DNA of 64,000 nt from a virus (lineage: Duplodnaviria > Heunggongvirae > Uroviricota > Caudoviricetes). Where the stretch lies: IMG/VR virus record IMGVR_UViG_2897352509_000007; one strand, given 5' to 3'. The stretch's first letter is position 1. Every line of letters begins with the position of its first letter. Positions 54,001-57,000 of this stretch are shown piece by piece. The position numbers were made by a program.

Positions 54001-57000
54001 TTTCTGGATGCGGTGAACTTTGTGGCAGGCAATCCGGAGGCCGACCCGGAGCAGGAGCTGACTGACCGGTGGGTGGTGGAGCAGATGTCAGAGCTGACGG
54101 CCATGACGGCCTCGTTTGTGCTGGCAACACCGACGGAGACGGACGGGGCGCTGTTTCCTGGTCGCATCATGCTGGCGAACACCTGTATGTGGGATTACCG
54201 GGGAGATGAATGCGGGTATAACGGTCCTGCGGTGGCGGATGAGTTCGACAACCCCACCACGGATATCCGTAAGGACAGATGCAGCAAGTGCATGCGCGGG
54301 TGTGAGATGCGCGGCATGGTGGCTAATTTTGGCGGTTTCCTTTCCATCAATAAACTTTCGCAGTAAATCCTGTTTTATGACACAGACTGAATCAGCGATT
54401 CTGGTGCATGCCCGGCGGTGTGCGCCTGCGGAGTCGTGCGGCTTCGTGATAGGCACCCCGGAGGGCGAACGGTACCAGCCCTGCGTGAATATCTCCGCAG
54501 AGCCGGAGGCGTATTTTCGTATTGCGCCGGAAGACTGGCTGCAGGCAGAGATGCAGGGGGAGATTGTGGCGCTGGTTCACAGCCACCCTGGTGGTCTGCC
54601 CTGGCTGAGCGAGGCCGACCGGCGGCTGCAGATAAAGAGTGCCCTGCCCTGGTGGCTGGTCTGCCGGGGGGAAATTCACAAATTCCGCTGTGTGCCGCAC
54701 CTGACCGGGCGTCGTTTTGAGCACGGGGTGACGGACTGTTACACCCTGTTCCGGGATGCATACCATCTGGCGGGGATAACGCTGCCGGATTTTGTGCGTG
54801 AGGATGACTGGTGGCGCAACGGTCAGAACCTTTACCTGGACAATATGGCGGCGACTGGTTTTTACCGGGTGCCCCTGTCCTCTGCACAGGCGGGCGATAT
54901 CCTGCTGTGCTGCTTTGGCGCATCGGTGGCCAATCATGCCGCCATATACTGCGGCAACGGTGAACTGCTTCACCATCTGCCTGAACAACTGAGTAAACGG
55001 GAGAGGTATTCTGAAAAATGGCAACGACGAACGCATTCTGTCTGGCGTCACCGCCACTGGCACGCATCTGCCTTCACGGGGATTTGCAACGATTTGGCCG
55101 CCGCCTCAGCCTGTACGTGAACACGGCAGCGGAAGCCATCCGTGCCCTGTCGCTGCAGATGCCGAGATTCCGCCGTCAGATGAACGAAGGCTGGTACCAG
55201 ATACGTATTCGCGGTGAGGACACGGCACCGGAGGCGGTGTACGCCCGTCTTCACGAACAGCTGGGTGAGGGAACGGTCATCCACATTGTGCCGCGACTGG
55301 CCGGGGCCGGAAAGGGTGGACTGCAGATTGTGCTGGGGGCGGCAGCCATCGTGGGCTCTTTCTTCACTGCCGGGGCATCAATGGCGTTATGGGGTTCAGC
55401 CCTGGCAGCCGGTGGTTTTTCTGCCACCACGATGCTGTTTTCACTTGGAGCCAGCATGATTCTGGGCGGTGTGGCCCAGATGCTGGCCCCGAAGGCAAAA
55501 ACACCGGATTACCGCGCAACGGATAACGGCAGACAGAACACGTACTTTTCCTCGCTGGATAACATGATTGCTCAGGGGAACCCGATGCCGGTGCCTTACG
55601 GTGAAATGCTGGTTGGCTCCCGGCGAATCTCCCAGGACATCAGTACCCGTGATGAGGGCGGAGACGGGAAAGTGGTGGTTATCGGGCGGGGATGAAAATA
55701 AAAAAATCCCGCAGAGTTAGCGGAGCTGCGGGAGAGAACGATGAAGATTAACGTTATGGAGTTATTTTTCAGGCATCAAAAAAGTAACGCAGCGTCATTA
55801 TTGCGGCTACAGGCAATTGCCGGAAATGTGAAGAGTTTCAGAAATTTTATTCCGTCATGACACAGGCACCCTCCGGGGTGCCTGTTGTTTTCTGGCATAA
55901 ACAGATTCAGACATCAGACAGGAGAGGGGGACAGAGTGGGTAAAGGGGGCGGCAAGGGGCACACGCCGGTAGAGGCAAAGGACAATCTTAAGTCCACGCA
56001 GATGATGAGCGTGATTGACGCCATTGGTGAAGGGCCGATTGAAGGTCCGGTGAAGGGGCTGCAGAGTATCCTGGTGAACAAAACCCCGCTGACGGACACG
56101 GACGGTAATCCTGTGATACATGGTGTGACAGCGGTCTGGCGCGCCGGGGAGCAGGAGCAGACACCACCTGAAGGCTTTGAGTCCTCCGGGGCGGAAACCG
56201 CACTGGGCGTGGAAGTGACGAAAGCAAAGCCGGTGACGCGCACCATTACGTCCGCGAACATTGACCGCCTGCGGGTCACCTTCGGGGTGCAGTCACTGTT
56301 GGAGACCACCTCAAAGGGCGACCGTAATCCCTCTTCTGTCCGACTGCTGATTCAGTTGCAGCGTAACGGTAACTGGGTGACGGAAAAGGATGTCACCATT
56401 AACGGCAAGACCACCTCACAGTACCTGGCGTCGGTGATTCTGGAGAATCTGCCTGAGCGGCCCTTTAACATCCGGATGGTCCGGGAGACGGCGGACAGCA
56501 CCACGGACCAGCTGCAGAATAAGACGCTCTGGTCGTCATACACCGAAATCATCGATGTGAAACAGTGCTACCCGAACACGGCGATTGTGGGGCTGCAGGT
56601 GGATGCGGAGCAGTTTGGCGGTCAGCAGATGACGGTGAACTACCATATCCGCGGTCGCATCATCCAGGTACCGTCAAACTATGACCCGGAAAAACGCACG
56701 TACAGCGGCATCTGGGACGGCAGCCTGAAACCGGCATACAGCAACAACCCGGCCTGGTGCCTGTGGGACATGCTGACTCACCCGCGCTACGGCATGGGAA
56801 AACGTCTGGTGGCGGCGGATGTTGACAAGTGGGCGCTGTATGCCATCGGGCAGTACTGCGACCAGACGGTCCCGGATGGTTTCGGGGGCACAGAGCCGCG
56901 GATGACCTTTAATGCGTACCTGTCACAACAGCGTAAGGCGTGGGACGTTCTCAGTGATTTCTGCTCGGCGATGCGCTGTATGCCGGTATGGAACGGCCAG

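Follow-up and report, generated by a model that had tools for sequence, protein, structure and literature searches.

The 240-bp spacer between the tail genes I and J of a caudoviral prophage most probably carries a gene for an Hfq-dependent small RNA (sRNA), read from the minus strand as a moron-type cassette that is possibly driven by CRP; a second hairpin in the spacer is a separate element, and a short open reading frame (ORF) there is a by-product of the sRNA sequence. The DNA is a stretch of 64,000 nucleotides, hereafter the window, from IMG/VR virus record IMGVR_UViG_2897352509_000007 (Duplodnaviria; Heunggongvirae; Uroviricota; Caudoviricetes). The element is a real feature which is already known: it is on record as the prophage sRNA EcOnc22-24, also named PasB. 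Possibly new are the link between these two names, a CRP-like box upstream of the sRNA, tandem arrays of the cassette, its alternative sodC and a much wider distribution.

Tree et al. 2014 (Mol Cell 55:199, Table S2; PMC4104026) reported EcOnc22 (prophage Sp15), EcOnc23 (Sp14) and EcOnc24 (Sp11) as homologous Hfq-crosslinked RNAs that give a northern band of ~85 nt and are destabilised in the Δhfq strain. The window spacer turned out to be identical to the I-J spacers of Sakai Sp11, Sp14 and Sp15 at 239 of 240 bases. The EcOnc22-24 peaks fall in these Sakai spacers, on the strand opposite to I and J, at an equal relative position in the three prophages. The published coordinates are those of NC_002695.1 and the mapping was done here on NC_002695.2, with an offset of ~+138 bp calibrated with Rfam hits for AgvB1 (+137 to +146 bp) and AsxR (+135 to +139 bp). 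Corrected in this way, the EcOnc22 peak corresponds to 55774 to 55714 of the window on the minus strand, the RNA running into the first hairpin of the spacer (hairpin 1). With uncorrected coordinates the Hfq peak would come to lie on hairpin 2 in reverse orientation, which the AgvB/AsxR calibration rules out. In general, the EcOnc coordinates of that study need a shift of +135 to +146 bp on NC_002695.2, as seen at 1.27 and 1.94 Mb, and uncorrected mapping leads to the wrong feature. The sole base that differs is 55788, which is C in the window and T in the three Sakai copies (GCGUUAC vs. GCAUUAC on the sRNA strand). This position is between the two candidate -10 hexamers, and the RNA includes it only with a start at ~55790.

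Pearl Mizrahi et al. 2021 (Sci Adv, PMC8550237, Table S6) listed PasB in enteropathogenic E. coli (EPEC) E2348/69 as an 83-nt RNA on the minus strand of NC_011601, from 1466343 to 1466261. This position is between E2348C_1436 (I) and E2348C_1437 (J), which are 240 bp apart. The northern probe for PasB, AATCCCGCAGTGATCGCGGAGCT (PMC8550237), covers the homolog of hairpin 1 and matches it except in the loop. According to the same source, PasB falls in the Δhfq strain with a log2 fold change of -6.8, takes part in 37 interactions found by RIL-seq (an RNA-RNA interaction assay), and reaches a baseMean of 482-1082 in the E2348/69 lysogen, as compared to 5-15 for I and J. The window and EPEC spacers can be aligned over the whole length, with 63 identities in the 85 aligned columns of the sRNA stretch. 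The window element thus shares with EcOnc22-24 and PasB its position between I and J, its opposite orientation, its sequence homology and its terminator. The note field for PasB is blank in the table of PMC8550237, and the preprint 10.64898/2026.05.13.724894 does not contain the word EcOnc, so neither source ties PasB to EcOnc22-24; a 2021 review lists EcOnc22-24 as being of unknown function.

Hairpin 1 is formed by TCCCGCAG at 55707-55714 pairing with CTGCGGGA at 55726-55733 across a loop of 11 nt. On the plus strand it is preceded by A7 at 55700-55706, so that on the minus strand it reads UCCCGCAG-N11-CUGCGGGA-U7, and this indicates that hairpin 1 terminates a leftward, minus-strand gene. 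The 3' end of the sRNA is therefore set at the U7 tract (55700), 5 nt from the gene I stop codon, and its 5' end is placed at ~55775 by homology to the 5' end of PasB. An automated scan called, on the minus strand, a shorter pairing of 5 bp that uses the 3' arm and U tract of hairpin 1. Among 35 distinct sequences, 97% of cells retain the stem of hairpin 1, and in the loci L084 and L087 it has been swapped wholesale, with two pairs changed on both sides. Folding, which the earlier note on this DNA had proposed as a check, gave structures better than chance: z = -2.91 for the minus-strand RNA of 76 nt that ends in hairpin 1 and z = -4.07 for hairpin 2, with none of 200 shuffles as good. A terminator scan found 4 sites in 1 kb vs. 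0.7 expected, both spacer hairpins being among the 4. Rfam returned no match in 55300-56300, even at E ≤ 10.

The sRNA body is the most variable part in an alignment of 39 distinct single-cassette spacers, with only AACUCC and [A/G]AUCUUC[A/G]U being kept. Both motifs are mostly unpaired in the minimum free energy fold, their ends lying in weak short helices. Their complements are GGAGUU, which is Shine-Dalgarno-like, and AUGAAGAUU, which resembles a start-codon region. Zhu, Shabalina and Storz 2026 (bioRxiv 10.64898/2026.05.13.724894) placed the PasB seed just upstream of the terminator. For near-identical or homologous copies it has been reported, in PMC8550237 and PMC4104026, that the RNA is made in lysogens, is bound and stabilised by Hfq, is ~83-85 nt long and enters many Hfq-mediated pairings with mRNAs. 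By analogy, transcription in the window would begin on the strand opposite to the tail genes at ~55775 (or ~55790) and stop at 55700 by means of hairpin 1, giving an Hfq-dependent sRNA of ~75-90 nt. Its promoter may be activated by cAMP-CRP at the box at 55824-55845. The sRNA would act in trans, its motifs AACUCC and AAUCUUCAU pairing with purine-rich sequence at ribosome-binding sites and start codons, and cis effects on the fully complementary late mRNA are conceivable as well.

The same stretch holds, on the plus strand, the 39-codon ORF (MKINVMELFF...) to which the earlier note had drawn attention. If the functional product were the 39-residue peptide, the insertion would be a protein-coding moron with hairpin 2 as its terminator. 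The ATG ORF is indeed followed within 2 nt by this terminator-like structure, and one phage record annotates a hypothetical protein spanning the 3' end of I and part of the spacer, while another has one inside the spacer. However, the start codon is kept in 25 of the 39 distinct spacers and lost (ACG or ACA) in the other 14, and start, frame and stop are all kept in just 7. Truncated forms of the ORF have 22 codons (E2348/69), 16 codons (L056 group) or 6 codons (L084). The ORF has no match in Pfam, and the ATG is preceded by no recognisable Shine-Dalgarno sequence (GGGAGAGAACGATG, with a weak GGGAG 9 nt upstream). Reading of the alignment together with a promoter scan gave no convincing or conserved plus-strand promoter that would use hairpin 2 as its terminator. 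Finally, the first codons that are conserved (ATG AAG ATT ... GAG TT) are the complement of the conserved sRNA motifs. Since the frame is poorly conserved and its first codons mirror these motifs, the ORF is best taken as a by-product of the sRNA sequence, and a peptide moron is very improbable. A minus-strand ORF of 40 codons at 55776-55898 was likewise rejected as a gene, its ATG being lost in L055-type and EPEC-type spacers.

The overlap of the two strands also brings to mind a type I toxin-antitoxin pair, in which the plus-strand ORF would be the toxin and the minus-strand sRNA an antisense antitoxin over its 5' end. Complementarity between the sRNA (55700-55775/90) and the start region of the ORF is complete, and both strands have a terminator of their own. 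Yet the ORF is intact in so few spacers, the peptide is neither hydrophobic nor membrane-like, the scan found no plus-strand promoter, and PasB pairs in trans with many mRNAs, as its RIL-seq partners show. The toxin-antitoxin RNA families of Rfam have no match in the spacer, although sok is matched elsewhere in the window. We give next to no credence to this arrangement.

The putative promoter region of the sRNA gene shows a regular layout. The most conserved block of the spacer is AAATGTGAAGA..TTCAGAA.TTTTATTC at 55824-55850, upstream of the sRNA, followed by hairpin 2. This block contains a CRP-like box which is near-invariant across the distinct spacers and occurs exactly once per cassette, including every unit of the arrays of two and four cassettes. 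The box agrees with the consensus AAATGTGA-N6-TCACATTT at 13 of 16 positions, and its promoter-proximal half is perfect (TCACATTT). Its pattern occurs once in the window, 0.16 occurrences being expected at up to 2 mismatches. Counting from the box, all cassettes have TATAAT, AATAAT, GATAAT or TATCAT at +25 to +30 and TAnnnT at +41 to +46. The 5' end of PasB in RNA-seq is at +52, in agreement with the second hexamer (the equivalent of TACTTT). Across the 82 loci with a long I-J gap, every cassette has kept the terminator, the box and the hexamer spacing. In class I CRP-dependent promoters the CRP site, TGTGA-N6-TCACA, has its centre at about -61.5, or at -71.5 and so on, from the transcription start. 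With a start at ~55774, deduced from the PasB 5' end, the box in the window would be centred at -60.5/-61.5, which is class I geometry. The box at 55824-55845 is thus a putative CRP site, assigned from its match to the consensus. Spot 42 (Spf) is a CRP-repressed RNA. In the published expression tables the PasB level of overnight LB cultures exceeds that of exponential DMEM cultures and Spot 42 behaves in the opposite way, a contrast that is consistent with CRP control and does not prove it.

Several observations weigh against this assignment of an Hfq-dependent, CRP-driven sRNA gene. The evidence for expression and Hfq binding comes from the Sakai and E2348/69 copies, and the offset used for mapping was calibrated at 1.27 and 1.94 Mb, whereas the EcOnc22-24 loci are at 2.2-2.9 Mb. 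The predicted lengths of 76 nt (start at 55775) and 91 nt (start at 55790) bracket the ~85-nt northern band, but neither equals it. A generic sigma-70 promoter scan gave nothing at the sRNA promoter region. The distal half-site of the box is TCTGA instead of TGTGA, and the stronger-looking hexamer, AATAAT, would set the start at ~55790 and the centre of the box at -44.5, which is non-canonical. Covariation is thin across both hairpins, with 3 of 18 pairs changing on both sides. Furthermore, repression at ribosome-binding sites is an action of the sRNA that we infer.

A search at ≥80% identity found the 240-bp spacer in 801 complete E. coli genomes out of 5426; these carry it at up to 9 places each, the median being 3, and the matches listed in this search have no annotation under the spacer. 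A more sensitive search revealed homologs in 1840 of the 5426 genomes at 5562 places (median 2-3, up to 10 per genome), and in RefSeq all 5562 are unannotated. The phage records with the spacer are mainly those of Stx-converting phages. In addition, I-J junctions were fetched by means of the N-terminus of J from species genomes and IMG/VR, and the gap was measured in 110 loci; these sizes are tblastn estimates and lie up to 3 bp either side of annotated gaps. A short gap of ~57 bp (56-59 bp) is present in 28 loci, namely lambda itself, mostly in contaminant contigs, and prophages of Shigella and E. ruysiae. The other 82 loci have gaps from 237 to 929 bp: one cassette at 237-263 bp (57 loci), one cassette with a different J-proximal part at 339-346 bp (9 loci), two boxes at 421-424 bp (3 loci), a minus-strand sodC at 851-854 bp (11 loci) and four tandem cassettes at 910-929 bp (2 loci). 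The comparison of junctions across lambdoid loci, suggested by the earlier note, speaks for an insertion that is not universal.

Juhala et al. reportedly defined the moron, in 2000, as extra, autonomously expressed DNA between conserved phage genes. Related phages lack the unit in question at this junction, as lambda and 27 other loci with gaps of 56-59 bp show. The unit clearly has a terminator of its own, and a putative promoter of its own is deduced from the hexamers and the CRP-like box, the generic scan being negative. An extra unit with its own terminator that is missing from lambda-type gaps makes the label moron-like, as proposed in the earlier note, essentially right; what has to be replaced is the payload, which is a minus-strand sRNA and not the 39-codon ORF.

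The larger gaps contain variants of the same unit. Arrays of four units are found in the IMG/VR contigs L126 (1090-2001) and L111 (1071-2001), and two boxes in L104, L115 and L120. In every full array unit there is a separate CRP-like box with its hexamers, a divergent body and a terminator; one array unit differs in its terminator stem (CCCGTAAT.../...ACGGGAG). Tandem copies of PasB are not reported in the published survey, which calls PasB mostly single-copy (10.64898/2026.05.13.724894). The sodC loci are L013, L058, L063, L065, L069, L070, L074, L077, L096, L127 and L133; the gene encodes a Cu/Zn superoxide dismutase (Pfam PF00080, 3.9e-32) and is read from the minus strand. In these loci the sRNA promoter, the box and hairpin 2 have given way to sodC, and the 3' part of the sRNA with its terminator stays downstream of sodC. 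This remnant could be an RNA derived from the 3' untranslated region.

The spacers are also mosaic. Two types of sRNA body and two types of J-proximal part occur in all four combinations (the window, L071, L062/L108 and L055), so recombination within the spacer is real, and the recombination boundary supposed in the earlier note is borne out as a property of the family. This raises the question of whether the conserved central block has no function of its own and is just common sequence at which lambdoid prophages cross over to exchange the J-lom-stf host-range module. Such a site would account for the four combinations, for the independent changes of nearest relative seen in the sRNA body, the central block, the J-proximal part, the 3' end of I and the 5' end of J, and for the central block being the most conserved stretch. 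A passive site, however, does not need the fixed spacing of box, hexamers and terminator in every cassette, nor duplication of the block with each tandem unit, nor compensatory changes in the hairpin. We consider a mere crossover point improbable, and the mosaicism more likely follows from the conservation.

Hairpin 2 is a different matter. It consists of ACAGGCACCC-TCCG-GGGTGCCTGT at 55862-55885, just upstream of the J ribosome-binding site, and one of its pairs changes from C:G to U:A in 12 distinct sequences. It is present once per spacer, next to J, even with four stacked cassettes, and the 345-bp gap class has a third version of a stem-loop at its place. The earlier note had taken I and J to be adjacent in lambda; the real distance is 60 bp (NC_001416 15445-15504; L012:1446-1505), and this gap has a stem-loop of its own, AAACCGCC-TGCG-GGCGGTTT followed by TGTCATTT, with a sequence unrelated to hairpin 2. 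The lambda stem-loop is GC-rich, is followed by the U-rich UUUUGUCAUUU and is located just before the J ribosome-binding site (-21 kcal/mol, z = -2.8). We know of no described function for it. A single hairpin 2 per spacer, with positional analogs elsewhere, indicates that the stem-loop before J belongs to the backbone of the tail operon and that the cassette has been inserted between I and the stem-loop. Candidate roles of hairpin 2 are a stop for transcription that is not antiterminated or an element of mRNA stability.

The spacer could accordingly have a cis role in the late tail operon, if hairpin 2 attenuated or terminated transcription into J that is not antiterminated, or if the sRNA paired with the I-J part of the late mRNA, which might then be cleaved by RNase III or act as a sponge for the sRNA on induction. 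Of the two hairpins, only hairpin 2 is terminator-like on the plus strand, and it would be the candidate for the internal attenuator supposed in the earlier note. Hairpin 2 is a strong terminator-like structure on the plus strand with one compensatory change, selection seems to maintain a stem-loop before J irrespective of sequence, judging from the analogs in lambda and the 345-bp class, and the late transcript contains the perfect complement of the sRNA. But late transcription is antiterminated by Q and must read through to J, lambda assembles its tail normally without the sRNA cassette, and the sRNA is abundant in uninduced lysogens, in which the I and J mRNAs are nearly absent. A cis role as the explanation of the spacer is unlikely; effects of this kind are compatible with a trans-acting sRNA gene and are not alternatives to it.

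Taken together, these data allow a broader proposal, which we put forward only tentatively and regard as somewhat less probable than its failure. The I-J junction may be a dedicated slot for modular sRNA cassettes. Each of them would combine an invariant CRP-like box and a promoter at a constant distance from it with a fast-diverging body or seed and a terminator, and the cassettes would be shuffled by recombination, sometimes stacked two to four deep and sometimes displaced by sodC. EcOnc22-24 and PasB would then be two branches of one large, diverse, catabolite-controlled superfamily. If so, roughly one in three complete E. coli genomes would have a member of this superfamily, far above the published PasB survey, and through variation in the seed each prophage could connect its own set of targets to the cAMP-CRP response of the host. 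The element being already on record, no new ground is opened by its detection as such. With no RefSeq annotation and no Rfam model, it is prone to repeated rediscovery as a "structured spacer with a small ORF". The link between the names, the CRP-like box and the tandem and sodC variants could give an experimental handle on function; catabolite control and the natural seed variants are suggested as routes to the function and targets of the sRNA.

The features of the locus are collected in Table 1. The description of a 240-bp spacer (55696-55935) with two hairpins and a 39-codon ORF given in the earlier note agrees with the sequence, the coordinates and the Pfam matches on both flanks. The I-frame ORF stops at TGA 55693-55695; gene I matches Lambda_tail_I (6.9e-15), and its last 60 residues are ~75% identical to lambda I by tblastn. 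Gene J matches FNIII-A_GpJ (GpJ FNIII-A) and Phage-tail_3. Positions 15-2036 and 57979-60000 of the window form a 2-kb repeat with 89.8% identity. The left edge of the window is the 3' part of the J gene of a second prophage with the DNA downstream of it, the I-J junction of that prophage being outside the window. Rfam matches elsewhere in the window bring the number of prophage sRNA genes to at least 5, the I-J sRNA included. STnc100 and AgvB are convergent and abutting, as at the Sakai PR' moron site.

Table 1. Features of the I-J spacer, its flanking genes and other RNA genes in the window
Feature	Position	Strand	Evidence or details
sRNA gene, homolog of EcOnc22/23/24 and PasB (very probable)	55700..55775 (alternative 5' end ~55790)	-	sequence homology, fold, terminator
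Intrinsic terminator of the sRNA (hairpin 1)	55700..55733	-	8-bp stem, 11-nt loop, U7 tract 55706-55700
Conserved sRNA-body motifs, candidate seeds	55741..55763	-	AAUCUUCAU 55749-55741; AACUCC 55763-55758; alignment of 39 distinct spacers
Promoter region (putative), two conserved -10-like hexamers	55781..55802	-	AATAAT 55802-55797; TACTTT 55786-55781; fixed spacing from box in all cassettes
CRP-like box	55824..55845 (core 55827-55842)	.	AAATGTGA-AGAGTT-TCAGAAAT; near-invariant, one per sRNA cassette
39-codon ORF, judged non-coding	55741..55860	+	not conserved
Hairpin 2, terminator-like stem-loop	55862..55893	+	10-bp stem, loop TCCG, then TGTTTTCT
Tail assembly gene I (left flank)	55018..55695	+	longest ORF; start codon assignment putative
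Gene J, tail tip / host specificity (right flank)	55936..59412	+	GTG start at 55936; ORF list and Pfam
DicF	23556-23607	-	Rfam
sok	30338-30512	+	Rfam
tRNA-like hit	35424-35483	+	Rfam
STnc100	35569-35761	+	Rfam
AgvB	35763-35824	-	Rfam

Other known prophage sRNAs were considered for the spacer and rejected. AgvB and AsxR (RF02702, RF02703) are both located at the PR' moron site and their models have no match in the spacer, the AgvB of the window being the copy listed in Table 1. HnrS (EcOnc10-12), which is also described with up to nine copies, maps between the Rz and terminase genes in Sp9 and Sp12. The I-J sRNA nevertheless resembles these RNAs as a group: AgvB, AsxR and HnrS are short Hfq-dependent sRNAs expressed in lysogens, morons of lambdoid prophages of enterohaemorrhagic E. 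coli and EPEC, and multi-copy through poly-lysogeny. They differ from it in sequence and position, AgvB and AsxR being downstream of PR' next to STnc100 and HnrS between the Rz and terminase genes.

As compared to lambda, the I-J region of the window has a stem-loop at the same position, that of lambda being a positional analog of hairpin 2, but it is 240 bp long rather than 60 bp, and lambda has no sRNA cassette, box or minus-strand terminator. PasB is much closer. It shares the slot, the orientation, the terminator stem (CCCGCAG/CUGCGGG and U7), the motifs, the box and the hexamer spacing, and it is likewise an Hfq-dependent RNA embedded in an operon of phage structural genes. The two sRNAs differ in that identity is ~74% with indels in the 5' half, so that the seed context of PasB is not the same as that of the window sRNA. 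In the preprint 10.64898/2026.05.13.724894 PasB is mostly single-copy and of low diversity, whereas the wider family found here is multi-copy and diverse. EcOnc22-24 are the same element as the one described here. In the available portions of PMC4104026 they are given as peak coordinates, with no gene context, ends, promoter or function and with the terminator not flagged; the window copy is in a different prophage, one that also has AgvB, STnc100, sok and DicF.

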